A stretch of DNA of 47,107 nucleotides from Prevotella sp. (GCA_016283605.1 JAEENF010000079.1:1-47107), one strand, 5' to 3'. Positions 1,981 through 29,163 are shown, counted from the first letter of the stretch. The notes: generated from the sequence alone by a model not told the origin. Numbers and translations are program-made.

Positions 1981-2013
1981 GACAAGCTTGGATGAAGATT
2001 AATGCTTCTAATG

Positions 2014-2052
2014 AACAACGGGCTGGCACCAAATGATGCCAGCCCTTTGTTT
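2014..2052. terminator. Intrinsic terminator between convergent genes, possibly bidirectional
   Basis: Perfect 9-bp stem GGGCTGGCA(2020-2028)/TGCCAGCCC(2037-2045) followed by TTTGTTT, with AACAA on the other side. Confidence 0.8.
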
Positions 2053-2064
2053 GATATGATTTGA

Positions 2065-3396
2065 TTAACGATAGAAATCAAGTATGCGTTGACGAATGAG
2101 ATACTCGTATTTGCTCTGTACGGCATCCTGCTGGGCCTTTAGGTACTTCTGCTGGGCTATAAGCAGGTCGAATACGCTGCCACGTCCGGCATCATATCTA
2201 TCCTGCTCGTAGCTGACACTAACGGCTGCCGCCTCGACGGCCTTCTGTGCCGATGTCATCTTATCAAGTGCCACAACCGCATTGGTGTATGCTTTATGCA
2301 TTTCCGTGCGCAAGTTCTGCCGTGCATCGTCGAGTGCTAACTGCTGGTCCATGACGTCGAGCTTAGCCATGCGGATATTGCTGCGCGTCTGGAATCGGTT
2401 GAAGATGGGAATGCTGAGATGCACGCCAACAACTTCGTTTAAGTTGTTGTTGAAGTATTGCTTTCCAAAGTCTCCCCATCCATAGTTCTGATGGAACATG
2501 TTGACGTAGAAGGTGCGCAAGCTACCCTGTAGGAACAGTGTGGGATAGTAGTCGGAACGTGCGACCTCGATGAGGGCCTTTTTCTCTTCGATGGAGGACT
2601 TGGCCGAAAGGATGGATGGCCACTTCTCGACGACATCGTCGTAGTTAGCGGGCATTGCTGGCTGACCGGCTGTGGTCACGTCGATGGGAGCCACGTCGAA
2701 ACCTTCGGCCGAGGGAAGGTTGAGCAACTGCACAAGATCGTTAAGGGCGAGTGTGAGTTCGCCCTTGGCCTGTGTCAGGGTGTATTCGTCGCCAGCTACG
2801 GTAGCCTCAATATCCTTCAGTTCGCTGAGTGGGCGTTTACCCTCGTCAACGAGTATTGAAGCGCGTTGACGTAATTGTTGGCTGACGGCCAGTTGTGAGT
2901 TGGCTACGTCGACCAGGCTCTTGTTACACAGACACTCCATAAAGTACACGGCAATCTGGATTCCGATGTCCTTACGGGCCTTCTCAAGGTCAGCGGTAGC
3001 TGCGTGGAGGCTGTAACGGTCGGCTTTCATCCGGTTCTTGACCTTAAAGCCGTCGAACAGGTTCATCTTGGCTGTAATCTCGCCCGTGGTGTAGGCCAGA
3101 TCATAGTTGGTTCCTGTACTATTGCTTTGCATGGAGCCTGTAGTGGAGTTGTAATTGCCGAAACTGAACTGCTCGCCCAATTGTGCGCTGACTTCTGGCA
3201 GCCATCCGTTTGAACTGGTTTCGAGGTTCACCTGGCGTTTCTGTATCTGTAGTGCCCTTTGCTGGATGTTGATACTATGCGTCGTTGCATATTCAATACA
3301 CTGGTCGAGTGTCCACGGCTGTTGAGCATCGGCAACGGAGAAGCCAATGGTCAGCAGGGTGCAAAGCGACAGGGTTCTGATGTTCTTTGTCTTCAT
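2065..3396 (-). CDS. TolC-family outer membrane efflux protein
   Basis: Signal peptide, WTLDQCIEYA start, two OEP repeats (LFDGF…; YYPTL…SIPIFNRF), end RYDAGRGSVFDLL…YEYLIRQRILDFY. Confidence 0.93.
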   Translation of the reverse strand: MKTKNIRTLSLCTLLTIGFSVADAQQPWTLDQCIEYATTHSINIQQRALQIQKRQVNLETSSNGWLPEVSAQLGEQFSFGNYNSTTGSMQSNSTGTNYDLAYTTGEITAKMNLFDGFKVKNRMKADRYSLHAATADLEKARKDIGIQIAVYFMECLCNKSLVDVANSQLAVSQQLRQRASILVDEGKRPLSELKDIEATVAGDEYTLTQAKGELTLALNDLVQLLNLPSAEGFDVAPIDVTTAGQPAMPANYDDVVEKWPSILSAKSSIEEKKALIEVARSDYYPTLFLQGSLRTFYVNMFHQNYGWGDFGKQYFNNNLNEVVGVHLSIPIFNRFQTRSNIRMAKLDVMDQQLALDDARQNLRTEMHKAYTNAVVALDKMTSAQKAVEAAAVSVSYEQDRYDAGRGSVFDLLIAQQKYLKAQQDAVQSKYEYLIRQRILDFYR

Positions 3397-3432
3397 TGAA
3401 GTATGGTCTGTTATTGAATGAATGTCATTAGT

Positions 3433-4533
3433 TTAACGTTGAATGCCACGAAGTCTGTCTTCCTTCTTGATGCCCGACTTTACAGCCACATAGATACCGT
3501 CGGAAATGCCAAGTTCAACAGGGCGGCGCTCCCACTTCTGGTTATCAACATCTTCGGGGGCGGAGGTAAGTACATATACATAAGTCTTACCATCGGCGAA
3601 TTCGACGGCGGTCTCTTCGCAGGAGAGGACGTTCTCTTCCCTGGCAATGACAATGCAGGCATTGGCACTATATCCCGAACGGATGTTGACATCGCTCGGA
3701 ATATGGGCCGAGGCTTTCAACTCGAACATCTTGGCACCGTTCTGCAGTTCACCCTCTGGAGCGATGTAGTCGAGGGTAGCGGGAATCTTGACATCCTGCA
3801 TAGAGCCAAGCGTGAGTTCCATCTCCATGCCCAAGTGTAGTTTAGCCACCTCGGTCTCATCAATATAACCGCGGAAGATGATGTCGCCCATGTCGGCAAT
3901 CTTGGCTATGGTAGTGCCCTCAGTAAATGCGCTGGTTCCTGATACGGAAGCGCCGACCTTAACAGGCACATTGAGCACCACGCCACTAATGGTAGAGCGG
4001 AGACTGGTGATATTGACATCGCCCGAGCGGCTGGACTGACCCTTGGTGATGACCTCCACCTGCGTCTGGGCGGCCTTGAGGCCCTCTTTGGCAGAAGCCA
4101 GCTTGGACTCTTTCATCTCAAACTCTTCCCGGCTCACGACCCCCTTGTCGTAGAGCGTCTTGATGCGGTCGTACTCGCGCTGCTCTTCGCTCAATGTGAT
4201 GCGCGCTGATTCCACCTGCCCCTTAGCCTGATTGAGTTGCGCCATGTCGGGAATGATCTTGATGGTGGCGATGACGTCGCCCATACGGACCACTTTTCCC
4301 GGTTGCACCATCAGTTGGCTGATGACGCCCGTTGCCAGCGGCTTAACCTCTACCTGGTTGCGGGCTTCCACACTGCCCGTGGCTGTCGTGATCTTGGAGA
4401 TGTCGCGCTGTTGCGGCTCGATGAGTTCGTAGACCACTGGTGCCGGCTGCGACTGCTTCCACAAGAAATAGAACGTGTAAACAACGAAAAGCCCCACAAG
4501 GCTCCATCCTGCAATTTTCAATACCTTTTTCAT
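3433..4533 (-). CDS. Efflux periplasmic adaptor (MacA/HlyD-type membrane fusion protein)
   Basis: N-terminal TM, ATGSVEARNQVEVKP…GVISQL…GKVV..GD lipoyl half, coiled-coil hairpin, IDETEVAKL, VELGISDG. Confidence 0.92.
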   Translation of the reverse strand: MKKVLKIAGWSLVGLFVVYTFYFLWKQSQPAPVVYELIEPQQRDISKITTATGSVEARNQVEVKPLATGVISQLMVQPGKVVRMGDVIATIKIIPDMAQLNQAKGQVESARITLSEEQREYDRIKTLYDKGVVSREEFEMKESKLASAKEGLKAAQTQVEVITKGQSSRSGDVNITSLRSTISGVVLNVPVKVGASVSGTSAFTEGTTIAKIADMGDIIFRGYIDETEVAKLHLGMEMELTLGSMQDVKIPATLDYIAPEGELQNGAKMFELKASAHIPSDVNIRSGYSANACIVIAREENVLSCEETAVEFADGKTYVYVLTSAPEDVDNQKWERRPVELGISDGIYVAVKSGIKKEDRLRGIQR

Positions 4534-4577
4534 ATCGTTATTATTTTATTTATTATCGTTTTTATTTTGATTATAGC

Positions 4578-5834
4578 CTATTCTTCCCTCAGTGCCTCAA
4601 TGGCCTTGATGGCGAGTGCCCGTTTAGCAGGTAGCCAGCCTGCGAACAAGCCACCGAGGACGAGGACGACGAGGGCTGCAATGGCAGGCAGGAACGGAAC
4701 GTAGGGATTGGTGAATACCGATGATCCATCATCTGGGAGTGCGTTGCGCAGGGCACTCAATGCATAGGTGCCCATCCCCAGTCCGAGTATGCCGGCAGAG
4801 ATGGTAAGAACCAAGCTTTCGCACATGATTTGTCGGATGATAACTTCAGGCATAGCTCCCAAAGCCCTGCGTACACCGATTTCCTGGGTGCGTTCCTTCA
4901 CTGTGATAAGCATGATGTTGGAGATACCTATCAAACCGGCTAGCAGTGTACCCAACCCCACAATCCAAATAAGAATGTTGAGGCCGATAAAAAGATAGCT
5001 GTATTGATTGAGCATGTTAGCCAAATTAAACGTAATCAGTGCCGACTGGTCTTTAGGATGAATCTGATGGAGTGATTTTACCAGTGTCTGTAACTTTTCC
5101 TGATAATCGGATGCCGGGAACTGTTTTTGGAGCGTGATAATCATCTGTCCGATTTTGTCGCCTTTACTGTAAACCTGCTGCTCGGTGGTCAATGGCAGCT
5201 GTATGCCTTCAGCTGGGTCTAACTCGATGATAATCATACTATTGGTATTTTTAACAACACCGACTATCGTGTATGTTACGTTGTCGATAGTGATCGGTCG
5301 GTTGATAGGATCTTCGTTGGGAAAGAAATTCTTTTGTACCTCAGTTCCTATGACACAAACTTTTCTTGATTCTTGAATGTCGATTTCGTTGATAAAGCGA
5401 CCCGCTATCAGTTTCTGGGGAATGTTGTGAAGATAGGACGGCATGACTCCTACAACTTTGTATTCTCCGTTGCGGTTGTTATGAGTGATGAGTTGTGTAG
5501 AACCTGGATGTACATAGTCGATCAATGTGATATTTGAAATCTCCTTAGGGAAGGCGCGCTTAAATATGATAGTGTCGCGCATGTTGAGATTCCACAATCG
5601 TCCCTGACTGAAGCCCTGATAGGACATGCCCGTTTCACTGGGTATTAGGAAAATACTGTTGGTTGGCAGTTCCATCATCTTTCCTACAAGACCGTTGTTT
5701 AATCCCATTCCTGCACCGATAAGTATTACCAGCATGAAGATGCCCCAAAATACTCCGAAGGCAGTCATCAGACTACGCCATTTCTGGCTTAGCACGGTAT
5801 CCCATATCTCTGACCAAAAATCCTTATCAAACAT
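4578..5834 (-). CDS. ABC transporter permease (MacB/FtsX family)
   Basis: RSLMTAFGVFWGIFML, large periplasmic domain (GRFINEID…KVCVIG), GISNIMLITVKERTQEIGVRRALGA, PAKRALAIKAIEALREE. Confidence 0.93.
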   Translation of the reverse strand: MFDKDFWSEIWDTVLSQKWRSLMTAFGVFWGIFMLVILIGAGMGLNNGLVGKMMELPTNSIFLIPSETGMSYQGFSQGRLWNLNMRDTIIFKRAFPKEISNITLIDYVHPGSTQLITHNNRNGEYKVVGVMPSYLHNIPQKLIAGRFINEIDIQESRKVCVIGTEVQKNFFPNEDPINRPITIDNVTYTIVGVVKNTNSMIIIELDPAEGIQLPLTTEQQVYSKGDKIGQMIITLQKQFPASDYQEKLQTLVKSLHQIHPKDQSALITFNLANMLNQYSYLFIGLNILIWIVGLGTLLAGLIGISNIMLITVKERTQEIGVRRALGAMPEVIIRQIMCESLVLTISAGILGLGMGTYALSALRNALPDDGSSVFTNPYVPFLPAIAALVVLVLGGLFAGWLPAKRALAIKAIEALREE

Positions 5835-5874
5835 CTTTATATCTATTATTCTCTTTTTTCATTTTTAACCATAT

Positions 5875-7113
5875 CTATGCCGCTAGCGCGTCTACTAGTT
5901 TGCAATTGATAGCTTTCTTGGCTGGCACATATCCGGCAATTATGCCTGCAAGCAGCATCACGACATTGGCCGCAAAGATAATACCCAGTCCTACAGTTGG
6001 AGCACCGAATATAGCCGATCCGCCAAAAGCTGCCAGAACAGCGGAAAGCAGTTGGGTTAGACCAATGCCAAAGAGCAAACCCACGTAGCCGAAAATCAGA
6101 GTGATAATGACCGACTCGACAAGTACCAGTGCCACGATGTGTTCGTTTGATGCGCCCATGGCCTTTCTTACACCCAGTTCACGGGTACGCTCCTTCACGG
6201 TAATCATCATGATGTTACTAACGCCTACGACGCCTGATACCATTGTTGCCAAACCAATGATTACAATAAACAGATAGATTCCTTTCAGAATGGTCATGAT
6301 GTCAAGATAGTTCTCATAGTCAGACTTCAGACTTATTGCTGACAGGTCTTCAAGATGGTAGTCTTTCTGCCTGGCTAATTGCTTACGAAGGTTAGACTCG
6401 AAAGTGCGGTTTGATTCCAAGTCATCCAGATTCCTCGTCATGATGCTGATTTTACTCAGATGGTTTTCCGGACAGAAGGTGTGCAGTGCCGTTGTGTATG
6501 GGGTATATACTGTACGAAGTGTACCTCCGATGTCGACATTGGGCTCATAGATGCCCACTACCAGGAAACTGATACTACCGATAGTTACTTGTTTGCCAAT
6601 GAGCTGCTTTTCTTCTGGGAATATGATATCAGTAAGACTCGACGACATAACACATACCTTTCGGTTGGAATCAATGTCCCACTGATTAATGCTTCGACCA
6701 TGAGTAATCTTAATATGCTCTATTCGCTCGAACCCCGTCTGTTGACCCTCAATAGAAGCTGCAGTCTTGATCTTTCCACTCGAAATGCTTGTAGTATCGC
6801 TGAGTGTGTATTTAATATAGGCAACGTGTTCAGGAAAGGCTTTCCTTATTTTGATCGTATCGTCAGGGGTGAAAAAGATCGCTTTGTTCTTGGGCTGTCC
6901 TTTATATACCATCGAAGTCGTGCCTGGTATGATGGTATATATATTGTCTGTTGAATTGGAAAAATTTGACATCATGCCCTTGAGCAGACCATTACCTGCA
7001 CCCAAGAGAACGATGAGGATAAAAAGTCCCCATCCAATGGAAAAGCCGGTTAAGGCAATTCTCATCTTGTTGCTCTTCATAGAGGTAAACACCTCTGACA
7101 AAATATCTCTCAT
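5875..7113 (-). CDS. ABC transporter permease (MacB/FtsX family)
   Basis: RIALTGFSIGWG, periplasmic domain, GVSNIMMITVKERTRELGVRKAMGA, PAKKAINCKLVDAL. Confidence 0.93.
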   Translation of the reverse strand: MRDILSEVFTSMKSNKMRIALTGFSIGWGLFILIVLLGAGNGLLKGMMSNFSNSTDNIYTIIPGTTSMVYKGQPKNKAIFFTPDDTIKIRKAFPEHVAYIKYTLSDTTSISSGKIKTAASIEGQQTGFERIEHIKITHGRSINQWDIDSNRKVCVMSSSLTDIIFPEEKQLIGKQVTIGSISFLVVGIYEPNVDIGGTLRTVYTPYTTALHTFCPENHLSKISIMTRNLDDLESNRTFESNLRKQLARQKDYHLEDLSAISLKSDYENYLDIMTILKGIYLFIVIIGLATMVSGVVGVSNIMMITVKERTRELGVRKAMGASNEHIVALVLVESVIITLIFGYVGLLFGIGLTQLLSAVLAAFGGSAIFGAPTVGLGIIFAANVVMLLAGIIAGYVPAKKAINCKLVDALAA

Positions 7114-7119
7114 GAGTAA

Positions 7120-7140
7120 CTTACACTATTCACTTTTCAC
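7120..7140 (+). repeat. Degenerate 7-nt tandem repeat across the ABC ATPase stop codon
   Basis: CTTACAC TATTCAC TTTTCAC. Confidence 0.5.
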
Positions 7141-7815
7141 AGGTCCACGCTCGTCTCTTGCGATAACGCCGTCCTTGAAGAAGATACGACGATCGGTCTG
7201 GTCGGCAATGTCCTGTTCATGCGTGACGATAATCACCGTTTGTCCGTTCTTCCTATTCACATCACGAAGCATATCCATCACCTCCTGGGTGGTCTTCGAA
7301 TCGAGTGCGCCCGTTGGCTCATCGGCAAGAATAATCTTCGGGTGAGATATAAGCGCACGGGCAATGGCCACGCGTTGGCGCTGGCCACCAGACAATTGCA
7401 TGGGCAAGTGGTCCCAGTGCCCAGCTAGCCCTACTTTATCCAAATACTCCATAGCCATATCGTTACGCTCTTTTCGTCCCACGCCACGATAATAGAGTGG
7501 CAGGGCAACATTCTCCATGGCGTTCTTGAAGTTGATCAGGTTGAACGACTGGAAAATGAAGCCAATGAGCTGATTACGGTAGCGGCATCCTTGTCGCTCT
7601 GTAATATCCTTGATCAGGTTACCTGCCAGATGGTACTCCCCTTCATCGTAGTCGTCCAGGATTCCCATCACATTGAGCATGGTAGACTTGCCTGAGCCGG
7701 AAGGGCCCATGATACTGACCAGTTCTCCTTCATCGATATGGAGATCCACCCCCTTCAGCACGTGAAGGGGCTGGGCTCCAGGATAGGTCTTATGAATTCC
7801 TTTCAGGTCAATCAT
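7126..7815 (-). CDS. ABC transporter ATP-binding protein (MacB/LolD-like)
   Basis: Walker A GPSGSGKST, signature LSGGQRQR, Walker B ILADEPTGALD, H-loop VTHE. Start placed at ATG 7815 (MIDLKG), 1 nt after the NRPS stop. Confidence 0.95.
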   Translation of the reverse strand: MIDLKGIHKTYPGAQPLHVLKGVDLHIDEGELVSIMGPSGSGKSTMLNVMGILDDYDEGEYHLAGNLIKDITERQGCRYRNQLIGFIFQSFNLINFKNAMENVALPLYYRGVGRKERNDMAMEYLDKVGLAGHWDHLPMQLSGGQRQRVAIARALISHPKIILADEPTGALDSKTTQEVMDMLRDVNRKNGQTVIIVTHEQDIADQTDRRIFFKDGVIARDERGPVKSE

Positions 7816-7816
7816 A

Positions 7817-8610
7817 TTATTGAATGTTATCAAATACAAACTGAATATACGATGCCACACACGCCTCGCTCAACATGCTCATGTGGTCGCCGTCGGCCTT
7901 CTGCCAGAGAAGATCGCTACGGAACTGCTTCCATAGTGCCACATTGTCTAACTCACGTTGCGGAATGATGGCTTTCCTTAATTGATCACTATCCATCTGG
8001 AGCATTGACAATATCTGTTCTTCAGAAATCCTCAGTTTCTTAGACAGATCTGCCAAAATATTCTCCTTTTGGGCGGCACTGATCAGAATAACTTTACCAA
8101 GAAGTGGAGCGGGGTTACCTTGGCAGTTCAGACGGCTGTACATGTCAAGGATCTCGTCCTGTTCATTGCTCATAACACCTATTTCCTTCTGCATGCTCTC
8201 TGGGAGCAGGCTGAGGGTAAGGTCAAGCTGCGGACGCTTCAATTGGCGGTTCTGGTCTACCCAGAACGAGTCGAGCATACAAACATTAGGCTTCTGGTCG
8301 GGATAATCCTGTTGCCAGCGAACTGCCAACCTGTAAGAAAGGTCGGCGCCAAAACAATGACCCGTAAACAGCTCAACCTTGTTGATTCCAGCTTCTAACA
8401 GCTTGACGTCGAGTAGCGTGTAATAGAATTCTATGGCCTCGTTAATATTGTCTTCCTTGAAGAGATACTCGAAATGAGTGGTGATGGCCTCAACAGTCAA
8501 CACGTTGTAACGTTCTTCAAGCTTCTCCATGTAAGGAATCAGGTCGTTATAGCGCGTCTCACCCTGTACAAGAACGGCCACAGGCTTAGTTGCATCAGGC
8601 TCTTTGTGCC
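7817..8610 (-). other. NRPS terminal thioesterase domain with Cys nucleophile
   Basis: GHCFG (Cys codon 8354-8356), MLDS (Asp 8270-8272), DGDHMSML (His 7883-7885). Confidence 0.82.
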
Positions 8611-23600: not shown

Positions 23601-25327
23601 GGCTTGGCTTCTACGCTGAAATCTATGTCCTCGATGAAGATTATCTGTACATTGTTAGTTTCGAAATCACCCTCAGCCTTCTTGGTTTCCAATACCGCAT
23701 GGCTGGTGATGAGTACCTTCGACTCCGAATTTTCGAGCATGTACTGCAAACGCTCGTTAGGATACTCAAAGTCCATAGGTGTATAGGCAGCACCGGCTTT
23801 ATGGATGGCAAGTACCGACAGTGGAAACTCTTTGAAACGGTCTAACATAACACAAACGAAGTCGTTAGGCTGGACGCCTGACTTGACGAGCTGGTGAGCC
23901 AGTATGTTCGAGCGTCGTGATAGTTCAAAGTAGGTCAGGCTGCTGTTCTTGTCGGCCACGGCTATATTGTTAGGCACCAACTTGGCGCGCTCCTCAAATA
24001 CTTGTGCAAATGTCTTGGTGATGTCTACTTCCAATTGTTTGCCGGCAGAGACTTCCATGATGTCCTCCTTCTCTTTTTCACCGATGATGCTGATGTCACC
24101 AATCAGCTCATCGGCCTGTTGCATCATAGAAAGTGTGGCTGCCTGAATGGCGTTGGCTAGCATCCGAAGACGCTCACGGCTGTTCTGAGCATCGCTGGCG
24201 TCGAGTCGTATCTCGTAGTTTCCTTCCTTAAGATAAATGATACATGCCAAGGGCTCGTCAGACAATCCTTTTGGCAACTGTCGGCTCTGGATGTGCAGAC
24301 CGTCTAGTTCAACGAATTCTTGCATGGACACTCCTTGGAAACCGAACGAGATGTTGGGCGTCATCTTCAGGTCACGACAGAAGTGGTTGAAGGGGTACAC
24401 ACCGTAGCGAATTGTCGACATTAACTCTCTACGGAATCCTTTAATAAAGTCAATGACAGGTTGCTTCGAGTCAACGTCTGCCAGAATGGGCACTGAGTGG
24501 ACGAACATTCCGTAAGCGTTCATCAGTCGCTTGTCCATGCGGCCATGGTTAAGGGCGTGGTAGGCTACCCGCTGTTCGCGTGTCAGTCTCGACACTACAA
24601 GGCTAAAAGCAGCCATAAACAGCAGATTACTGCTTGTACCGTGTTCTTTGCACCAGTCGTCAACCTGTTGCACAGGGATGTAAGCCGACTCGCGGATAGA
24701 ATTACCCCATGCATCGGCATTGCTTTCCGTGAGATTTGCAAAGTCCAAGCCTGCAAATTTCTCTCGGTAGTAGTCGGCTGCACGCTGATACTGTTCGGAG
24801 CCAATCGTAGCCTCTTCGTCTTCGGCATATTGGTACATATCGTAGTTGATCTCCTCGAGCTTATTACCATAGTAGGCGGCTGGGATGTCCTTGATGGTCA
24901 GGTTGGGAGAAAGGGTAAGACCGTCACCTATTGTATGGTGAATCTCTAACAGCATGTAGTTGTACTTTGGAGCATCGATAATCTCCATTCTGCAAAGTGG
25001 TTGGTTGCCCAGCGGATCATAGGGACGTACAAAGCGATTGTCTATATAGTCTTTTGCCTCCTCCTCACTCATTTTGTGAATAAGAATGGGTATTTCCATA
25101 CTATGGTCACAATATTGCCGAGGATTTCCATCCTCATCGAGCATAAAGCGTGTATGCAACTCAGGACGGGCATCGATGATACGTCTTAACATCTGCTCGA
25201 TTCTCTTGACTGTTATCGACTTTGGAAAAGGTGTAAGCGTAGGCAGATTATATTTTGTCATCGACGGCATTTGGAGCCACTCTAAGAATATGCCGAGTTG
25301 TGATTGGAGTAAGGGATAAGTCTTCAT
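7817..25327 (-). CDS. Five-module non-ribosomal peptide synthetase, C-A-T-E-C-A-T-C-A-T-C-A-T-C-A-T-TE (5836 aa)
   Basis: Five YMIYTSGSTGKPKG/YGPTE/YHTGD/QVKLRG(F/Y)RIELGEIE adenylation sets, five HHxxxDG condensation motifs, one epimerase, five carrier Ser motifs and a C-terminal alpha/beta-hydrolase. Confidence 0.97.
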   Translation of the reverse strand: MKTYPLLQSQLGIFLEWLQMPSMTKYNLPTLTPFPKSITVKRIEQMLRRIIDARPELHTRFMLDEDGNPRQYCDHSMEIPILIHKMSEEEAKDYIDNRFVRPYDPLGNQPLCRMEIIDAPKYNYMLLEIHHTIGDGLTLSPNLTIKDIPAAYYGNKLEEINYDMYQYAEDEEATIGSEQYQRAADYYREKFAGLDFANLTESNADAWGNSIRESAYIPVQQVDDWCKEHGTSSNLLFMAAFSLVVSRLTREQRVAYHALNHGRMDKRLMNAYGMFVHSVPILADVDSKQPVIDFIKGFRRELMSTIRYGVYPFNHFCRDLKMTPNISFGFQGVSMQEFVELDGLHIQSRQLPKGLSDEPLACIIYLKEGNYEIRLDASDAQNSRERLRMLANAIQAATLSMMQQADELIGDISIIGEKEKEDIMEVSAGKQLEVDITKTFAQVFEERAKLVPNNIAVADKNSSLTYFELSRRSNILAHQLVKSGVQPNDFVCVMLDRFKEFPLSVLAIHKAGAAYTPMDFEYPNERLQYMLENSESKVLITSHAVLETKKAEGDFETNNVQIIFIEDIDFSVEAKPINLTTPDNLAYMIYTSGSTGKPKGAMLHQAGLWNFINVVIDMEKLTAADRIEGHRSFSFDAHIEDMYAILTLGGSFHIMPTDIRKDLAAIRDFLFEHQITGGGYSTAIAALLLNTYDDLPVRFITAGGEKLDGVYSDHIEIINVYGPTECTDDTSYYSIAPGERVENIPIGKPVANTWNFIVDDSGHLVPRGMMGELCIAGIQVGRGYWRLPERTAQSFVDCPFIKKDRWGRKVRMYHTGDLCRWNEQGDLEYMGRIDFQVKLRGFRIELGEIESKVLQLEGILQAAAEVKKVMGTEHLILYYTLTEGAEVTDDSIRQALEESSLADYMVPDTYMKLDVMPITPNGKINRKQLPLPEIKSDTEYVEPEGATEKAIAEGFASVLGLSIPVGALDSFYALGGDSIKSIRLVSLLRKEGISLQVPQIMKLKTVRAIAAAASDNDLPQVSQEAWSGTLPNSAIVQYFFDLELPKPEHFNQAVMLCAQTSVDEEDLRQSLQALVIHHDMLRAVVANGQLEIRTTDAENLYAMKVYDFRGHADARQKVEQAANELNASINLQEGPIFKTALMHCDRNDYLLLVAHHLVVDGVSWRIIAEDLNTVYQQALHGTPIELAAKTHSYKDYVEGLNHYKDSYILKKETEYWDEVRKQMQTMPMSNGCDYSRTFESLDISLDNAKTHQLLTETSRAFNTEINDLLLTALGRAYQQQSGRDMLSIQLEGHGREPIGEPLFIDRTVGWFTSIFPVVLTQLGGDLSHDLRHVKETLRHIPNKGLGYGQLYGMDILMQPLVCFNYLGEFGNEATKDITFVPTSDLGAGQMVATENTYGPGLTIDAMVNNGTLQVHFKYDTDIWGSDKAQDLANAFVCQLNDIINLTTSCEQAMPTASDLGELEWNDEEFTQIYQEFEARGEHLSRIYPLTPMQEGMVLKAVLEPESVAYRLVFAVEMNMLPSEQQLRSALDSLAERHEVLRTSVIYRGVHEYRQAIVNGRQLGLTMMDISGEDDKDKAIADIRKNLLNSAFDLQSKPLFNMVCLKTSDTSCTLLLVFHHIIEDGWCLPIIQKDFFNMLADEIAGKLSKVESTGTGRYENYVRNIRSKDNTASLAYWSNLLEGYEAQAVIPSFGTVKEEYQTKEDSLITELSLDEQHALNNLCQATQTTPNTVVELAWGLLLQRYNHVNDAVFAKIVSGRDNTNEDVSDVIGIFINTVPVRIKIENDDTVLDALQRVQAQAVETNKHDYLSMSEVQQQSELGTELYQSTVVFENYPSEEAPAQSWPFVVKPVITKEENFDDISLTVFIGEDGRMALQLQFNNQKYSEQLAKDTLHTLHQLVRGIIANADEKIANLMLLDKETEKDVLKLSAGERKKFNLSKTFIESFIENAKATPEAIAVVDSTSHYTYGELDQHSNALAHRLIAEGVKPNTFVCVLMERRKEFVLAVHAIHKVGAAYSPLDVDYPVNRLQYMLENSESKVLLTSRDVLAEKHANGLTIDRNKVKVILLDEIDLNSQTEPVCLTTPDNLAYMIYTSGSTGKPKGVMLHQRGLMNLICTHMETLQLTASDRIASHRSFSFDAHVDDLFPILFAGGELHIMPSDIRKDLGAIQKFLVDHKITGFGGTTSLMMLLINDYELPLRFITAGGEKLSGVKSDKMHIVNLYGPTECTNDSTLFVINPGDEYENIPIGRPLPNTNSYITDQFGNLLPQGIPGELCISGVQVGYGYWHLPEQTEKVFVDNPFGEGTLYHTGDLARYNEDGQIEYLGRIDGQVKLRGFRIELGEIEANAMQHPAVRQAAALVKEVNESRHLVLYYTQEEGKQISHTELAAHLDATSLAKYMMPEIYMPLDAMPLLPNGKINRKALPTPEVESGENVAPATETEKQLYEIAVELLKTDQFGVTTNLISIGMTSLSAMRYSAQLSQKYGLKIPTKDILATPFIRKLAKIQEVAADAQPEVDYSLRSTYPLTENQRGVYVDWDMNREALQYNIPFVVDFTGKDGEQLKKALEAVVEAHPYLKTRLVRENGDVRQQRRDDAPVTVSLTKLDKEPTKDFFRSRLLPFNLFTDDLYRFEIYQAPYTLWLFMDIHHIIYDGASSFVLMQDLRRAYNGEKLEKEEYTAFERALDEEALKGTSTWKEAEAYFDQLLPGIEMAVYPHSDVVTGSGNQELSLTFDGSAISEFCQKYGVTVSNYFLTALMQVLHRTTREESIYITSIDNGRTDVRMMNIMGMFVKTLPVVSNFTTEEAYKKSMAEAVTDMQKQFVETQGRSFYPFTEMVERHGIRPEIMYAYQGSIDDAGMEKEEAIQLDTVKMPLSVSIYPEADGKYTIALEYDGGLYGEADMRQLAQSIANFSVSAASANCLANVSLLSAEEEHHIALQSTGQQQQIDPNETFVSIFMQRAAENPDAPAVVDELGQYTYGQLNALTAAVAKKLVALGVKPYSFVSIMLGYQKEFLVAAIAVEKAGGAYVPLDYDYPNERLLYMLEDSESQVLITSHAIFMEKNADGEFKAKNIFFIDDYIQGITIDKVDTTLNHAIPDGLAYMIYTSGSTGKPKGVMISHKAKANFVQFIAREWRHTSKSRICCHSSFSFDASIEDLYPVLTVGGTLYTVPQDARKDLTLLHDFIINNGITGGCYTTQLGQMLLQLFPDLPVDYLVVGGEKMTVNPDCKCRLINTYGPTEFTVDATFFELEKGKEYKNIPIGRPLYNLSAYVVDPCGHLLPQGMAGELCMAGPQIASGYWKREDLTAEKFANMTIDGQQVKVYHTGDLVRYNADQQIEYMGRIDSQVKLRGFRIELGEIETLIGNYESIQMESVQVREIGGVQHLCAYYTADKEIDKEALRNYLAEQLTDYMVPTAYIQLDEMPLTPNGKVNTKVLPNPSVGVEEFVSPESPTEEKLFKMASETLKHDQFGVTTNLITMGLTSLSAMRFTVAIHIEFGVEITVKDVLQNPVIRDIATIIDGKKGQTETPMADNTSQLSPFTSHLYYYPITENQRGVFFDWEMNRDTTQYNVPEVHVMKGGNAEKLHEALVKVIDAHPYLKTRFVQHEGDIMQIRRDEEPAEILMEALAEKPDTAFFQSRIRPFDLYRDTLYRLEIYTYGGDVYLFIDIHHSIYDGASSLVLLSDIDKAYHDEEVKSESYTAFDFALDELRLTKSEKYTEAENYFKGLLDGLTTAVYPHSKELNGVAEGNEGHLSLTVSGQDITMFCQQEALTPNSYFLTVLMHVLHSVTREDDITITTINNGRADVRMMEIMGMFVKTLPVVSTSADGLQSIATVAKKIQNQVLETQSRDFYPFTKMVELYDLRPEIMFVYQPSGGEENENDAINLTLNQSKLPLTIKVTPNGKDEYDMELEYDNSLYSKKDMERLGAMLKQVSEQALTATKLSEVSLLSPDEEKAMTDFCKGKHLDVDINKTFIQLFTETAQRIPDKLAVADENSQFTYRELSKKSDALAHCLIENGVCPDDFVCVMLERCKEFILCVHAIHKAAAAYAPLDIDYPSDRLQYMIEDCQAKVLLTTHAVFENKCSADNIEIDESHTKIIFIDDLQLDVDCEPICLAKPENLAYMIYTSGSTGKPKGTMLHQAGLMNCVEVVADERSITENDRVGVFYAFSFDAHVVSIYPVLLRGGSLFIMPSSIRKDMEMTVEFIRENKITEVGFPTAIGSLIVLNYPELPLRLISMGGERMDGLYSDKYTIVNAYGPTECTCEVTYFIVEPGHHYDTIPIGRPTANNWGFVTDKYGRLLPVGIAGEFCFAGIQIGRGYWNLPEKTAEVFGDCPFVSEDHWGRKVRMYHTGDMVRYREDGELEFIGRIDNQVKLRGFRIELGEIENRSMLFDGIKQVAVMVKKVNGAEHLCLYYTETKEVDVSLLKQHLSESLAEYMVPDAYMRLDVMPMTPNGKINRKALPLPVIKAEEIVAPENEMEKELLDIAFDLLKNDQFGVTTNLISMGITSLLAMRFSSIAKQKLNLHLPTKDILQHPTVRELAALTGTLQEQQISSYEKRDYYPLTENQRGVYIDWELNRGTTQYNIPFVKEFSDISAEQLRNALVETIEAHAYMKTRLTLRHDDVAQLRRDDATVTVTIEQTDCEPDTQFFQSQIRPFDLFNDDLYRLKVYQTPTTVWLFMDMHHIIFDGGSGLVFLRDLNRALNGETLEKEQFSAFDQALYEQSMTTSVQYMEAEGYFDEMLASAELAIYPRSTKDTTSGNQELQVTIERRDIESWCRQNSFTESNFFMTVLLQVLHRTTREEQLYITTIDNGRSETNLLDCVGMFVKTLPVTSTWEKPLKAENMSAAVKKTQEQFFNTKANSFYPFTKMVERHNIRPEIMYVYQGGLEGGNNQRNGDAITLALDTAKLPITMTVYPTGTDNYALVLEYDGSLYNQKDMSRLASALRTFAMRSIETGDLNAISLLDDEATAEVLVLSKGKDLKVDISKTFANLFTEQACRTPNAPAVVDKESQLTYAVMDSYSNLIAHKLVEIGIKPNDFVCILLDRMKEFPLSVLGIHKAGAAYTPLDFEYPNDRLLYMLENSEAKVMITTHAVLEAKKTEGEFNVGNVTIFYIDDFMNSDDVQGLTKKKVKPIDLSSPDGLAYMIYTSGSTGKPKGAMLHQAGLRNFISVVIDMEKLTADDRISGHRSFSFDAHIEDMYPILTLGGSFHIMSTEIRKDLGAIRDFLFKHKITGGGYSTAITCLLLNTFDDLPIRFITGGGEKMAGVYSDHIEIINVYGPTECTDDTSYYAIAPGQHIEEIPIGKSVANNWNFIIDDAGQLLPQGVAGELCFAGIQVGRGYWRLPERTAQSFVDCPFVSEDQWGRKVRMYHTGDLCRWNEDGELEYISRIDTQVKLRGYRIELGEIEKCAKAFEGMISVVADVKTVNGTQHLCLYYTADRDIDTEALRENMSQTLTDYMVPETFVKMESMPMTPNGKIDRKKLPIPDIKQETEGIPPSTKREQKLFDIVKELLGHEDFGVTDNLMRLGMTSLLVIRMVAKACTEGILIKVDDFMRTKSIRAVLALNQQLMAWHKEPDATKPVAVLVQGETRYNDLIPYMEKLEERYNVLTVEAITTHFEYLFKEDNINEAIEFYYTLLDVKLLEAGINKVELFTGHCFGADLSYRLAVRWQQDYPDQKPNVCMLDSFWVDQNRQLKRPQLDLTLSLLPESMQKEIGVMSNEQDEILDMYSRLNCQGNPAPLLGKVILISAAQKENILADLSKKLRISEEQILSMLQMDSDQLRKAIIPQRELDNVALWKQFRSDLLWQKADGDHMSMLSEACVASYIQFVFDNIQ
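8640..11665 (-). other. NRPS module 5: C - A5 - T5 (approximate bounds)
   Basis: YPLTENQRGV and HHIIFDG. A5 FDAHIED/YGPTECTDD. T5 LGMTSL with Ser codon 8732-8734. Confidence 0.88.
11700..14700 (-). other. NRPS module 4: C - A4 - T4 (approximate bounds)
   Basis: YPITENQRGV and HHSIYDG. A4 FDAHVVS/YGPTECTCE. T4 MGITSL with Ser codon 11804-11806. Confidence 0.88.
14698..14730 (-). repeat. Degenerate 7-nt tandem repeat inside the NRPS T3-C4 linker
   Basis: Minus strand CTCTCAG CTCTCAC CTTTCAC ATCTCAC CTCT, encoding SQLSPFTSHL. Confidence 0.65.
14770..17770 (-). other. NRPS module 3: C - A3 - T3 (approximate bounds)
   Basis: YPLTENQRGV and HHIIYDG. A3 FDASIED/YGPTEFTVD. T3 MGLTSL with Ser codon 14882-14884. 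Confidence 0.88.
17800..20890 (-). other. NRPS module 2: DCL-type C - A2 - T2 (approximate bounds)
   Basis: YPLTPMQEGM and HHIIEDGWC (DCL-like). A2 FDAHVDD/YGPTECTND. T2 IGMTSL with Ser codon 17915-17917. Confidence 0.88.
20950..25327 (-). other. NRPS module 1: starter C - A1 - T1 - E (approximate bounds)
   Basis: HHTIGDG (~24920-24940). A1 FDAHIED/YGPTECTDD. T1 LGGDSI with Ser codon 22394-22396. E motifs HHLVVDGVSW, EGHGRE, RTVGWFT, PNKGLGYG, FNYLG. Confidence 0.9.
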
Positions 25328-25340
25328 CGTTATTAACTTT

Positions 25341-27119
25341 TTAATTATTTTGATTGTTCCAGATTAGATACATCATGTTCTGTCCATACATATATTTATA
25401 GTCGACCTCATCGCAGCGGCCGAATATGATTTTCATACCAATCTTTTTCTTTTCTTCATCGATAGTCAGAGGGTTGAAAGGGCGGCCTTCGTACTTCATG
25501 GAAACAGTAAACGAATCCTTGTTTTGCACGAAACGCACATCGGAATAATGGCCGTTACCCTCAATACCTGAATGTTGGATGGTATTCAGGAGGGCTTCTT
25601 CCACGCTATTGCTGATCCTGATCTGCTGATCCTTGCCTAAATCGAACTGTGATAAAACATCTGGCATGCTCTCCATGAACTGTATGAAAGACGACTTTTC
25701 GTTCCGAAGCGAAGTCTCGTACAGTCGGTCGCTGTTGGTAAGCGGCAGTAGTGTCAGGTGGGTCATCAGCGTGGAACGCTCTTTAAAGCGGATTACCTCC
25801 GATATCAGGAAGGTGCCCACAAACGCGAGTCCTCCGCTCACCGGGAATGCATACCACAGCAAAGGAGTGTGAGCAGTGGCGTCTGGTGACGGATCCCAAG
25901 TGCTAAACAACTTCATCATCGTCAGCAGAAATACCGGAATCAACAATATCAGAATGGGCGATAGGACAATCTTGCCTATCATCTGGTAGTGGTTAGCCAT
26001 CGTAATCACCAGACAGAAGGGCGCCAGACAAACGATGAACACCCGTATGCCTGAATTTGCGAGCTGCTCCAACTCAGGCGTGTTGGCTCCAAACAGACGT
26101 GTCACCACGCCAGGCGCCACCTCCACAAACAAGGTAAATGTCAGGGTGACGGCCAGAATCGACAGCAGACATCTATTCACCAGAAATCTCACGCCCACAT
26201 AGTCGCGCTGTCCGAACAGGAATCCGCCCAGCGCTGTGATGGTGCCTCCAAAGCCATTACCCAGCATCAACCCGATCATAAAGATATTCATACATACCGA
26301 CATGACAAACATGCCGTTGTGTCCCAGGTTGCTCTGAACCATATTATTCATGGCATAGAACATGAAGGTGAGTACGACATTGCTGATGAGCATCGGGATA
26401 CCTTGTAACAGGTTAGGTCCAAGATACCTGACGAGGCCTGACGGTGCCAGTTGGAAATGGATGCCCGAGTGTTTACCAAACAAATGACTACACAGGTATG
26501 AGATGCCGCAGACGTAGGCAATTATGGTGGCAATGGCCGAACCCACGATGCCCAAGAAGTAAACCAGCACAAAATCGAACAAGATGTTTGTTACGCCGAT
26601 GATGGCCATTGACTTCGTCACCTTCTTGGGGAATCCGTCGATTTCAACACACTCGTTGAAAAACGTGTTGAGCATCATGGCCACCGCACAACCCGTCATC
26701 ACACTCAGATAGGGTACCAGCAGCGGATATAAATGCTCGTCCTGTGTGAGCAGCAAGGCTATCTTATCGCCGAAAACGAAGCCTGCAACGGCAAAACATG
26801 CCCCAACTGCCAGGATCGACAGCAGGGCCGTTGAGAGAATGCCATTCACGACATCCTTGTCACGCCTGCCAATGGCCTTTGTCGCGATGATGCAGGCACC
26901 GATTCCCAGCAAGGTGGTAAAAGCCGTGATGACAAGATTCATAGGAAGGAACAACGTGATGGCCGACAGGGCATCGGGCGACACCATATGGCTTACGATA
27001 ATACCATCAATCGTTGTTACCAACTGGCCAATGGCCATCGTTAACACCGAAGCTATCAGGAAATACTTCAGCGCTTGGTTGATGAGATATGGCTTTCTCG
27101 TCTCTTTCATTTGTCCCAC
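25341..27119 (-). CDS. MATE-family efflux transporter fused to a C-terminal RsbW-like HATPase_c domain
   Basis: About 12 hydrophobic segments with MATE motifs (IDGIIVSH…ALSAI; NILFDFVLV…GIVGSAIAT). Soluble tail with EEALLNTIQHS, KYEGRPFNP, IGMKII…DEVDYKY…GQN. Confidence 0.85.
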   Translation of the reverse strand: MGQMKETRKPYLINQALKYFLIASVLTMAIGQLVTTIDGIIVSHMVSPDALSAITLFLPMNLVITAFTTLLGIGACIIATKAIGRRDKDVVNGILSTALLSILAVGACFAVAGFVFGDKIALLLTQDEHLYPLLVPYLSVMTGCAVAMMLNTFFNECVEIDGFPKKVTKSMAIIGVTNILFDFVLVYFLGIVGSAIATIIAYVCGISYLCSHLFGKHSGIHFQLAPSGLVRYLGPNLLQGIPMLISNVVLTFMFYAMNNMVQSNLGHNGMFVMSVCMNIFMIGLMLGNGFGGTITALGGFLFGQRDYVGVRFLVNRCLLSILAVTLTFTLFVEVAPGVVTRLFGANTPELEQLANSGIRVFIVCLAPFCLVITMANHYQMIGKIVLSPILILLIPVFLLTMMKLFSTWDPSPDATAHTPLLWYAFPVSGGLAFVGTFLISEVIRFKERSTLMTHLTLLPLTNSDRLYETSLRNEKSSFIQFMESMPDVLSQFDLGKDQQIRISNSVEEALLNTIQHSGIEGNGHYSDVRFVQNKDSFTVSMKYEGRPFNPLTIDEEKKKIGMKIIFGRCDEVDYKYMYGQNMMYLIWNNQNN

Positions 27120-27124
27120 TATTA

Positions 27125-28765
27125 TTAATGATAGAGGAAACGCCGGATACTCTTTTTAGGCGTTTTCTCGAATTCTTCATAACGTTGCTCCAACTTTGCC
27201 AGCTGACAGTATTTGGGCAGATGCTGGTTTATTTCCTGACGAATGGCTTCAAGGTCGAGTGATTCGCGATTCGTCTCTGCAGCCTTGAGAGTAAGGTCGG
27301 AGACGTAAACCAACGCTACGAGCTTCTCGTCACGCTGTACCACTACACATTCGTCGAAAATAGAGTAGCTAATCACCTGGTCTTCTGCTTCCTCGGGATA
27401 GATGTTTTGCCCGTTGGCTCCTAACAGCATATTCTTCTTGCGGCCACGGATATAGACGAATCCGTCTTTGTCGATCACGCCAAGATCGCCTGTATGTAGC
27501 CATCCGTCTTTGTCAATGGCTTCTTGGGTTGCCTCAGGATTCTTGTAGTAGCCCATCATCGTGTTGATGCCTTTCGTAACAATCTCACCTGGCTCGTGTT
27601 GAGGGTCATCACTCAAGATCTTTACTTCCATATTCAAGGCAGCCTTTCCACAAGATCCCGCACGTAATTCTCTCCAGTCAGCGTAGGTAATGATGGGCCC
27701 GCATTCAGTCATGCCATACCCTACAGTAAACGGAAACTTCACCATTCTTAGCACCTTTTCCACCTCTTTGTTTAGGGGGGCACCGCCCATTATAACTGAA
27801 TGGAAGTTACCACCCAGCGCCACGGATAGCTGATTCCGGAACTTGCGACAGATGAATTGGCGAAAACCAGGTGCTTTCATCATGAACCGGATGCTGGGTT
27901 TGTTTAAAACGGGCAACACCTTTGCCTGTATGATTTTTTCCATCACCAAGGGCACACAAAGGAAGTAATCTGGTTTTATAAAGGCAAATGCTTTAATCAA
28001 TACCCCGGGCGCTGGTATTTTAGTTAGAACATATAAGTGGGCACTCAGCATGATGCCATAGAGGAAGTCGAACGAGAACCCGAACATGTGAGCCATAGGT
28101 AATATCAGTAACAACTGCATACCCGGCTTGTAAGGAAGGGCATCGCTTGCAAACATTTGGTTCGACCACAGGGATTTGTACGACAACATGACCCCCTTTG
28201 GATTACCAGTACTTCCACTGGTGTAACTCAGAAGCATCAGTGCGTCAGGATCTTCGGCTTCATAGCATACGTCTTCTCGGGTATATCCGTTGGGATGATT
28301 TGTTCTGAATCGGTGGAAAGCCTCTTCTTCAACCTTATCGGTAGCAGTATTGGGGGTCATGGTGAGCAGATCCTCCGTATCAAGCAAATACATCGGACAT
28401 TCTCCTTCTTCCCAAAGTGTTGAAAGCTGACGGTTACCAATCATGAATTTGGCATCACAGTGCTCGCAAAGCATTTTGAGTTGCTGCTTGCTGTAATCAG
28501 GCAATAAGGGCACTGCTACGGCACGATAGGTAATAATGGCCAACATGGATATAGCCCAGTTCGAACAGTTCTTATCGCAAATGGCAATCTTGTCGCCAGG
28601 TTTAATGCCTAATACATCGAAAAGAGAATGAATGAAACACATGCGTGTTGCAACATCTCCATACTTATAAGTGATGTTGCTGCCCCAGTCCGTCAGAGCA
28701 GGCTGCTCCCACGATTTGCGAAAAACATTTTCAATTCTCTTTATTAAACTCTTGTTGTATCCCAT
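27125..28765 (-). CDS. Long-chain fatty acid--CoA ligase (FadD-like AMP-binding protein)
   Basis: YTSGSTGNPKG, LPMAHMFG, GYGMTECGP, GYYKNPEAT, GWLHTGDLG, GRKKNMLLGANGQNIYPEE, KTPKKSIRR. Confidence 0.88.
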   Translation of the reverse strand: MGYNKSLIKRIENVFRKSWEQPALTDWGSNITYKYGDVATRMCFIHSLFDVLGIKPGDKIAICDKNCSNWAISMLAIITYRAVAVPLLPDYSKQQLKMLCEHCDAKFMIGNRQLSTLWEEGECPMYLLDTEDLLTMTPNTATDKVEEEAFHRFRTNHPNGYTREDVCYEAEDPDALMLLSYTSGSTGNPKGVMLSYKSLWSNQMFASDALPYKPGMQLLLILPMAHMFGFSFDFLYGIMLSAHLYVLTKIPAPGVLIKAFAFIKPDYFLCVPLVMEKIIQAKVLPVLNKPSIRFMMKAPGFRQFICRKFRNQLSVALGGNFHSVIMGGAPLNKEVEKVLRMVKFPFTVGYGMTECGPIITYADWRELRAGSCGKAALNMEVKILSDDPQHEPGEIVTKGINTMMGYYKNPEATQEAIDKDGWLHTGDLGVIDKDGFVYIRGRKKNMLLGANGQNIYPEEAEDQVISYSIFDECVVVQRDEKLVALVYVSDLTLKAAETNRESLDLEAIRQEINQHLPKYCQLAKLEQRYEEFEKTPKKSIRRFLYH

Positions 28766-28790
28766 ATATTCTATTAAACTGATATGGCAT

Positions 28791-28798
28791 CAAAGATA
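28791..28798 (-). promoter_or_regulatory. Candidate Bacteroidetes -7 promoter element proximal to the ligase/NRPS operon
   Basis: TATCTTTG on the minus strand matches TAnnTTTG, about 25 nt upstream of ATG 28765. No clear -33 element. Confidence 0.45.
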
Positions 28799-28814
28799 AG
28801 CAAATTCACTTACA

Positions 28815-28904
28815 TTATTCCACGTTAGAGCACGAGGTCAAAATAATCGCTGTGAAGCCGCAGGTCAGGATGGCGGCAAGCATACATATTATATTCATTT
28901 TCAT
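28815..28904 (-). CDS. Small ORF (29 aa) consisting of a lipoprotein signal peptide plus CSNVE; possibly a gene remnant
   Basis: Hand translation gives MKMNIICMLAAILTCGFTAIILTSCSNVE*. Hydrophobic core and LTSC lipobox. Alternative ATGs at 28910 and 28898. Below the ORF-track size cutoff. Confidence 0.5.
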   Translation of the reverse strand: MKMNIICMLAAILTCGFTAIILTSCSNVE

Positions 28905-28974
28905 TGACATTGTTTTATATTAGTTATACCTTAATTCTGGTCGTTTTTAATCATTGTTCTACATTCGAACGATG

Positions 28975-29009
28975 CAAAGATACAATTTTTTCCCTAATTA
29001 AAAAACAAA
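28975..29009 (-). promoter_or_regulatory. Candidate Bacteroidetes promoter driving the small ORF and the cluster
   Basis: Minus strand TATCTTTG(CA) at 28982-28975 and TTTG at 29009-29006. The 23-nt spacer is slightly long; AT-rich context. Confidence 0.55.
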
Positions 29010-29155: not shown

Positions 29156-29163
29156 TACTTTTG
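29156..29163 (+). promoter_or_regulatory. Candidate -7 promoter element for the S8 protease
   Basis: TACTTTTG(CA) 12 nt upstream of ATG 29176. Confidence 0.55.

Follow-up and report, generated by a model that had tools for sequence, protein, structure and literature searches.

A nonribosomal peptide synthetase cluster in Prevotella sp. predicted to make and export a short N-acyl peptide

What would be made by the eight genes that lie head to tail at positions 2065-28765 of a Prevotella sp. contig, and does this cluster have a characterised counterpart? The stretch analysed, called the window here, comprises 47,107 nucleotides (GCA_016283605.1 JAEENF010000079.1:1-47107) and is the entire contig of a genome estimated to be 81% complete. 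An earlier note, made from the sequence alone, had described a lipopeptide cluster around a nonribosomal peptide synthetase (NRPS) and had named it the best candidate there for an undescribed system; the cluster turns out to be no one-off but one member of a large family. All eight open reading frames (ORFs) are unbroken and on the minus strand, in the order acyl-CoA ligase, MATE, NRPS, ATPase, two permeases, adaptor and TolC, with family names taken from Pfam and NCBIfam searches. Their recomputed intergenic gaps, from upstream to downstream, are 5 (14 from the MATE ATG), 13, 1, 12, 40, 44 and 36 nt, which agrees with the claim of eight co-directional genes 1-44 nt apart. From these genes we infer the acylation, residues, ring closure and activity of a product: the five-module line would make an exported, mostly basic N-acyl pentapeptide with a D-residue first, in which a thioesterase (TE) with a cysteine nucleophile closes a side-chain lactam. 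We give this reading as a whole an even chance of being correct.

The NRPS (7817-25327) is one open frame of 5836 amino acids with the order C-A-T-E-C-A-T-C-A-T-C-A-T-C-A-T-TE, where C denotes condensation, A adenylation, T carrier and E epimerisation domains. Motifs A3, A4, A5, A8 and A10 are intact in all five A domains, five carrier serines are present, and all six C-fold domains contain HHxxxDG, so the proposed five-module architecture is confirmed by motifs as well as by the single frame. Colinear C-A-T modules run from an active-type C domain to the TE, which is the general pattern tested for in lipopeptide NRPSs. With approximate boundaries, all on the minus strand, the domains are C1 (24038-25327; HHTIGDG), A1 (22538-23995; acidic pocket code DAEGTGVDDK), T1 with the E domain (20978-22504; GGDS with Ser978, then HHLVVDGVSW, EGHGRE, RTVGWFT, PNKGLG and FNYLG), module 2 (17813-20890; C2, A2 with code DADGTGLNDK, T2), module 3 (14777-17770; C3, A3 with code DAECVGTVDK, T3), module 4 (11702-14710; C4, A4 with code DAVGSGACEK, T4), module 5 (8633-11662; C5, A5 with the same code as A1, T5) and the TE (7820-8620).

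The D-configuration that had been claimed for the first residue is supported by this layout. The second C-fold domain carries the E motifs and sits behind a GGDS-type carrier, and the third belongs to the post-E (DCL) clade. A tree with outside references likewise places C2 among DCL domains and the window E domain among other E domains; the E domain would thus turn residue 1 to the D-form, and the DCL-type C2 would accept it. The usual carrier motif is GGHS. Across the family, GGDS is found in 97 of 127 carriers that precede an E domain (30 unmatched by the pattern) versus 7 of 273 other carriers. T2 to T5, which have no E domain behind them, read G[ML]TS or GITS at this motif, and the same is seen across the family. 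Among long proteins, we used the best 120 of 1111 scored, with lengths of 3209-10213 residues only; 98 of these score at least 400 bits with the family C profiles, and 52 of the 98 run from a first-type C domain to a TE within one protein. These 52 complete lines hold 30 code strings with 3-6 modules and show ten patterns of length and E placement, with an E domain on module 1 in 15 of them.

How would the peptide leave the enzyme? As a single sequence, the C-terminal domain had no Pfam or PDB match. The profile of a 32-row TE alignment matches NocB and other TEs, and a structural model of the domain (predicted local distance difference test score, pLDDT, 92) has the NocB TE as its top Foldseek match (E 6.7e-9) and 4zxi as its top VIA-align match (Z 19.8, root-mean-square deviation 4.2, 222 aligned). 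As modelled, the domain is a type I TE of the alpha/beta-hydrolase fold. The NRPS has no reductase Pfam match that would indicate a terminal reductase domain. The nucleophile is cysteine (GHCFG, Cys5658), and Asp5686 and His5815, which complete the triad by alignment and fold, are invariant in the alignment. Cysteine serves as nucleophile in 30 of 39 distinct TEs from the loci and in 41 of 74 from the long proteins; such TEs make up about 2% of known TEs (PMC13288461, in excerpt). In the same excerpt, the macolacin MacB-TE cyclises only via an amine of 2,4-diaminobutyric acid (Dab), without hydrolysis, and its Cys-to-Ser mutant only hydrolyses. By analogy, the window TE would form a ring via the amine of Lys or Orn, most plausibly at the third or first of the five residues (X1 to X5), and we favour a lactam over a linear acid about twofold. 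An A3-like module lies upstream of the TE in 30 of 30 complete Cys-TE lines (18 distinct strings) versus 12 of 22 complete Ser-TE lines.

Several observations speak against ring closure. Cys TEs have one origin on the TE tree, equivalent to one independent pair, which leaves their association with A3-like modules a hint to which no statistical test applies. The window TE is 8-16% identical to solved structures, so that its analogy with MacB-TE comes down to the nucleophile, and an Arg at X3 would offer no amine for a ring. It is conceivable, with a minor but real chance, that the same N-acyl cationic pentapeptide instead leaves in linear form, either hydrolysed off the enzyme or transferred to a free amine. 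The A3 code fits Arg as well as Lys, the 22 Ser TEs among the 52 complete lines share the fold and the export cassette, and a ring from X3 would span just three residues; other Cys TEs, moreover, yield products that are not macrolactams, such as beta-lactones and beta-lactams. Linear release is in turn disfavoured because the Cys-TE lines, albeit of one origin, keep the A3-like module without exception while other positions vary, and because the characterised polymyxin-type Cys TE yields a cyclic product only (PMC13288461, in excerpt).

We next consider which residues the five modules select. Our code extraction reproduced the known Thr, Asn, Ser and Dab codes of reference proteins, and the window codes were compared by eye with tables of PMC12283262 (in excerpt). 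The tables compared were those for Orn, Lys, Pro, Arg, Glu, Gln, Asp, Asn, Thr, Ser, Tyr, Phe, Trp, Dab, 2,3-diaminopropionic acid (Dap) and His; none of them contains an exact match, and a text search of the literature for the codes returned no NRPS paper. The closest agreement is that of A3, which matches Lys DAESVGTVIK, Arg DAESVGAVDK and Arg DAEDVGTVSK at 8 of 10 positions, followed by A2, which matches Arg DADDVGLVDK at 7 of 10, as it does one code labelled Phe. A net acidic charge is common to all five pockets, which together with the A3 match to Arg and Lys codes suggests that the product is likely cationic. Judged from the codes, the peptide is likely mostly basic, with an exact sequence that lies beyond prediction: modules 2-5 would add four L-residues, X1 would equal X5 by the identical code of A1 and A5 (the two domains are 72% identical), X3 would be Arg or Lys, X2 Arg-like, and X4 is uncertain. 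By our own pattern, the window line is also one of only 3 of the 52 complete lines that have no Leu/Val-type or DADTM-type module.

Two of the pocket types match published codes less closely. The code of A1 and A5 reaches 6 of 10 at best, with several Arg codes, Tyr DAEGIGAVMK and Glu DAKDIGVVDK tied, and A4 likewise reaches a weak 6 of 10 with Lys DAGPSGAVDK and Arg DADDSGAVTK (PMC12283262, in excerpt). If the pockets have been misread and instead select Tyr, Gln or Glu, or modified ornithines, then the product would not be polycationic and might be a signal or a metal binder. The ties of A1/A5 and A2 agree with such a misreading, as does the best A1 match among plasmid records, which is only 38.6% identical. 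We consider it unlikely, since the combination of Glu239 and Asp330/Asp331 is similar to the consensus for Arg and to the Dab and Dap codes ending in DDK, and since the eight genes include no hydroxylase, formyl- or acetyltransferase, or TonB receptor.

Is the first residue acylated? The C domains of the family split into four clades, namely E, post-E, internal and first-position, with a support of 100 for the first-position clade in the Shimodaira-Hasegawa-like approximate likelihood ratio test (SH-aLRT). C domains that open a second subunit cluster with the internal domains, which indicates that position does not explain the first-position clade, to which C1 belongs, and that this clade is a specialised class. 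Based on its first position, its intact HHTIGDG motif, its dedicated clade, the presence of a ligase gene, and a cassette with no upstream carrier or second NRPS, we infer that C1 would join an acyl group to residue 1, with the acyl-CoA supplied by the cluster ligase or by a housekeeping ligase. The cluster ligase (27125-28765, minus strand; 546 amino acids) is an AMP-binding protein (PF00501, E 3.9e-66) whose best NCBIfam match, long-chain-fatty-acid--CoA ligase, falls under the cut-off. It is 43% identical to a tandem housekeeping ligase pair on contig C177 and forms a clade with the upstream ligases of G076 and L007 (66-72% identity, support 1.0). Elsewhere, a ligase lies downstream in 9 of 27 cassette loci with a 7.5-kb flank versus 0 of 6 loci with a distant ABC transporter, and these downstream ligases form a different, weakly supported group, so that the cassette ligases apparently belong to two groups.

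By descent, C1 is not a starter of the surfactin type (SrfAA), which the earlier note had cited as its example of an acylating N-terminal C domain. C1 lies outside six reference starters and within one rumen clade that also holds internal domains (SH-aLRT 99), and a tree that constrained it with the classical starters was rejected (approximately unbiased test, p-AU 0.00126), in a quick tree of 36 selected rows with one long branch. The six references, which are labelled starters by position and not by assay, come from the N-termini of proteins of Paenibacillus, Brevibacillus and Aquimarina and of unnamed proteins; one of the proteins carries fusaricidin codes. The best solved relatives of the C1 profile are the elongation domains TycC (137 bits) and LgrA (116 bits), followed at 85 bits by PDB entry 7c1k, which we take to be the rhizomide starter. 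Both the constrained tree and these scores count against acylation by C1, as does the absence of a visible ligase near the cassettes of G257, G125 and G366. The claim that the ligase is a cluster gene stands for the window, where the gene is present, and does not extend to the family, in which only some cassettes carry one.

C1 might add a short acyl group that comes from central metabolism or another donor, or be idle, with the ligase as a passenger and no long fatty tail on the product. This would accord with a C1 that is not a classical starter, with first-position domains of the family that have altered histidines (HxxxDG is matched in 61 of 69 and missed in 8), and with the 18 of 27 cassette loci with a long downstream flank near which no ligase was found, the upstream side being invisible for most. 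We judge it improbable, as the window C1 motif is intact and as the ligase gene lies 5-14 nt upstream of the MATE gene in the same direction, with its clade mates in the same place in two other genomes. We rejected as very improbable a role of module 1 in making an N-acyl-D-amino-acid cap that is later cleaved off a prodrug, of the kind known from colibactin and amicoumacin: the C-A-T-E layout is shared with those systems and a gene for a secreted subtilase adjoins, divergent from the cluster (29176-31395, plus strand), but A1 does not have the code for Asn, DLTK(I/V)GEVGK, no beta-lactamase-type (ClbP-type) peptidase is among the eight genes, only 15 of the 52 complete lines have an E domain on module 1, and the subtilase itself was rejected as a cluster member, with full-length relatives (37-48% identical) in 10 of 18 same-genus genomes and none seen beside other cassettes.

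The remaining genes of the cluster point to a dedicated export route. On the minus strand, they encode a MacB-type ABC ATPase of 229 amino acids (7126-7815; PF00005), two MacB/FtsX permeases (5875-7113 and 4578-5834; each PF12704 and PF02687), a periplasmic adaptor of MacA/HlyD type by Pfam and NCBIfam (3433-4533) and a TolC-family outer-membrane channel (2065-3396; PF02321, E 1.4e-52). Housekeeping copies lie elsewhere in the same genome, on contig C176 for the ATPase (60% identical) and permease (37%) and on contig C72 for the adaptor (45%) and TolC (32%), and a housekeeping efflux operon with an NRPS neighbour by chance was rejected on this basis. In cassette loci, the ATPase is found at 80-99% identity. 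Among 400 same-genus genomes, a cassette-type adaptor (57-83% identity; next class at most 48%) is present in 13, in 10 of which an NRPS lies beside the exporter, with the other three cut by contig ends. We found 80 metagenome loci with the ATPase, dropped one that had no ATPase ORF, and scored those with at least 1.5 kb upstream; an NRPS adjoins the ATPase in 40 of 44 loci at or above 80% identity, a count that includes kin and near-copies (33 distinct ATPases), and in 0 of 16 below it. In an order-wide sample of 400 genomes, the best adaptor is 51% identical and three such loci have no NRPS. The rejection of a chance neighbour also draws on four housekeeping loci of the genus and three loci of another family, all of which lack an NRPS. 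Taken together, the linkage and the separate housekeeping copies uphold the view that the exporter is dedicated to the NRPS.

MacB-type pumps can take substrates from the periplasm. MacAB-TolC homologs secrete lipopeptides in Pseudomonas (PMC10928948, in excerpt), and by analogy a two-step route is plausible in which MATE would carry the product over the inner membrane and the MacAB-TolC-type pump would export it. Exporters of related loci vary in makeup: the two permeases are fused (818 amino acids) with no adjacent ATPase in G257:C4 and G177:C214 (L026), the ATPase is missing beside the permeases in G125:C33, a MATE-like fragment is fused to the ATPase in L117, and in L100:1-18494 the exporter is of the cassette type but its neighbours are three divergent NRPS-like genes whose codes are unusual, together with a glycosyltransferase-2/GH3 fusion and a phosphopantetheinyl transferase (PPTase).

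The MATE protein (25341-27110, minus strand, or to 27119 from an alternative GTG; PF01554) has no paralog in its own genome at E 1e-10 and ends in a HATPase_c_2 domain (25341-25760; PF13581, E 5.9e-7, 30 bits versus a cut-off of 27.4). The N box of this domain is kept, and its G1 box reads YEG instead of DxG, so that Tyr occupies the site of the ATP-binding Asp; 34 of 69 relatives share this form. From its sequence, the anti-sigma-kinase-like domain may function in binding and not as a kinase. One subgroup of the relatives keeps DDG, and another has lost the N-box Asn. A possible partner is encoded by an unlinked partner-switching module at G000:C62:3936-7779 (minus strand; L154), which comprises a TPR-SpoIIE phosphatase, a HATPase_c_2 kinase, a STAS protein and a HATPase_c protein; the relative L118 has a STAS gene and a PPTase within its cassette. 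The window genome encodes an Sfp-type PPTase on contig C119, unlinked to the cluster, that would prime the carriers.

How widespread is this type of cluster? C domains were found in 83 of 300 same-genus genomes, and most of 20 smaller loci that were fetched hold two-module C-A-T-C-A-T genes of about 2430 amino acids with MATE neighbours. Among the rows listed (59 others were unlisted), only G076 (7268 amino acids) and the window have an NRPS above 5000 amino acids. For Bacteroidaceae, a survey of the rumen arrived at 934 NRPS clusters, with Prevotella NRPS clusters among those differentially expressed (PMC8241843, in excerpt), and in another survey Bacteroidia average 1.15 clusters per strain (PMC9248904, in excerpt). 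The earlier statement that large NRPSs are uncommon here holds for the large TE-ending type, as judged by its adaptor, whereas NRPS genes at large are common in the genus. Relatives bear the names Prevotellaceae or Prevotella sp., and matching DNA runs are gut metagenomes, some labelled bovine or sheep. A search of the genome contigs with the E-C2 region gave one locus, and among 400 genomes sampled across the phylum a single one was matched by the first-C profile at E 1e-60 (220 bits versus 716 for the window), which places the family, among the genomes searched, only in the genus Prevotella and in rumen-type metagenomes. Cultured Prevotella communis encodes a five-module member with a Cys TE (WP_091854111.1). 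The Firmicute Sporomusa sp. KB1 encodes an NRPS, P0118, whose C, DCL and E domains resemble those of the family (430-487 bits) but which has reductase-type Pfam domains; it is a possible link to the origin of the family.

Within the family, a small palette of codes recurs at differing positions, split lines reach up to seven modules, and the gene order around the NRPS varies between loci while the exporter is constant. The window NRPS is itself a mosaic, with A1 and A3 nearest to P0003 (93% and 91%), A4 to P0002 (85%), A5 to P0002 and P0050 (83%) and A2 to P0044 (72%), and in L138 the codes of window modules 3-5 stand directly behind a first-type C domain. A1-type domains (DAEGTGVDDK, 76-78%) also form the last module of some two- or three-module NRPSs (L029, L047, G175:C49 and G201:C93), whose other A domains are only about 35% alike. 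As read from these sequences, A domains are exchanged between cluster families. The window genome has a second NRPS of 1686 amino acids (G000:C41:846-5906, minus strand; A, C, A, T and a Ser-type TE), in which the first A domain has no amine-binding Asp235 and which is flanked by two TPR/TonB-receptor-like genes.

With which known systems can the cluster be compared? Surfactin synthesis pairs the SrfAA starter C domain with acyl-CoA ligases. The window resembles it in the proposed start from ligase-made acyl-CoA and in an E domain followed by a DCL domain, and differs in a C1 outside the classical starter clade, in acidic rather than Leu/Glu pockets, and in a TE with Cys. The polymyxin and macolacin synthetases of Paenibacillus (MacB-TE, PmxB-TE; PMC13288461, in excerpt) likewise have an N-terminal C domain, E-derived D-residues, a Cys-His-Asp TE and basic residues, the last of which are predicted in the window; they use ten modules in three genes, whereas the window has five in one gene, a different first-C clade and an anaerobic Bacteroidota host. 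No polymyxin-type Dab code is present in the window, with at most 5 of 10 positions shared with the Dab codes of Table S21. Like the clusters for Pseudomonas cyclic lipopeptides with PleABC (PMC10928948, in excerpt), the window has an NRPS that opens with a C domain and closes with a TE, next to an exporter of the MacAB-TolC type; in contrast to those clusters, in which C and E functions are combined in dual C/E domains, the window has E and DCL as separate domains, an ATPase split from two permeases, a MATE-HATPase fusion, an acyl-CoA ligase, and no LuxR gene among the eight.

Also comparable are the gut and rumen C-A-T-C-A-T(-R) NRPSs of Ruminococcus bromii, for ruminopeptin (PMC12327764, in excerpt), and of Methanobrevibacter ruminantium (mru0068/mru0351; PMC2812497, in excerpt), which share with the window a first-position C domain, a MATE neighbour and anti-sigma-type partner-switching parts. 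The association of NRPS, MATE and anti-sigma genes in Methanobrevibacter ruminantium is on record with products unknown (PMC2812497, in excerpt). The two-module Prevotella type and the window family form one C-domain clade (SH-aLRT 99), and the family differs from the ruminopeptin type in a TE end instead of a reductase, E domains, 2-7 modules and a MacAB-TolC exporter. In the data searched, which did not cover MIBiG, the statement that there is no characterised match held: neither NRPS half passes an NCBIfam equivalog, named non-family proteins match the window NRPS at 28-32%, and a literature search that took in few subscription journals and no survey supplements returned no paper on this cassette or on any Prevotella NRPS product. 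By the sequence features tested, the cluster is outside the polymyxin, classical-starter, ruminopeptin and prodrug families. Every chemical step has precedent, and what sets the cluster apart is its host, its Cys TE, its separately derived starter and the extent of its shuffling. By analogy, it is predicted to work as a lipopeptide NRPS cluster with polymyxin-like release.

The cluster is intact. One 21,903-nt contig from an independent DNA run (X10) matches window positions 12000-29667 with 20 differences, overlapping contigs of run X9 tile most of the same interval, the last modules and the exporter recur at 93-100% identity in two metagenome loci, and the NRPS falls in a 90% cluster of 42 members; in all 14 members examined among those listed, the module types are unchanged along the length. 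Based on the X10 contig, the metagenome loci and the 42-member cluster, we rejected an assembly chimera or pseudogene. Repeats in the window consist only of the likeness between modules (60-80%). The cluster is probably expressed: contigs from rumen metatranscriptome libraries of four runs cover 29, 24, 18 and 18 of 30 bins across 1900-21800, with runs X18 and X19 yielding identical contigs under different study codes, which leaves at most three data sets. This evidence is tempered by an RNA depth of about 2-7 in unstranded libraries that may include DNA, and no listed RNA contig bridges any gene junction by 31 letters on both sides.

At the downstream boundary, the terminator that had been placed at 2014-2052 corresponds to a real hairpin between convergent genes (2014-2051; -26.9 kcal/mol, z -5.95, 0 of 200 shuffles as stable). 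Its better U-tail is on the plus strand, and it is probably a bidirectional terminator for both convergent genes. The candidate promoters proposed at 28.8-29.0 kb fared less well. Two TATCTTTG motifs, which we take to be the Bacteroidota -7 promoter motif, do exist on the minus strand (28791-28798 and 28975-28982), but they are weak candidates, as the motif occurs at chance level (22 in the whole window versus 22.7 expected), and no exact TTTG box for the -33 element was found 14-22 nt upstream of either site. Flanking genes are an ordinary Bacteroidota set (lpxB, surE, parAB, relA and others), and an Rfam search of the window had no match. Elsewhere in the window, 856-1980 (plus strand) encodes a 374-amino-acid protein that has an N-terminal signal-like stretch and no Pfam match, and whose C-terminal tail, likely a secretion tail, is the only part that matches in 30 relatives. 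A stand-alone nucleotidyltransferase-family gene (42868-43884, minus strand; PF14907) adjoins a MerR-type helix-turn-helix gene.

What would this cluster mean for rumen Prevotella? The product is likely a membrane-active or competitive agent in the rumen. We tentatively propose that the family is an undescribed, combinatorially diversifying lipopeptide class of rumen Prevotella, in which the window would encode, at the all-basic extreme, a tiny polymyxin-like cationic cyclic lipopeptide antibiotic whose producer is an obligate anaerobe and belongs to the dominant bacterial genus of the cow. Equally tentative is the corollary that the export cassette, a separately arisen starter C domain and the Cys cyclase are fixed while the palette of A and E domains is reshuffled, which would give dozens of products of 3-7 residues. 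For enzymology, the family presents Cys and Ser TEs that nature has paired dozens of times on a single scaffold, as well as a first-position C clade apart from the classical starters, and its natural record of module swapping is useful for NRPS engineering. Prevotella is a dominant rumen genus, and the family offers short, synthesisable targets as well as a cultured host in Prevotella communis. If the products are indeed cationic cyclic lipopeptides, then the rumen would have antimicrobials of its own that shape its communities, and these would be leads in the search for substitutes for feed antibiotics.

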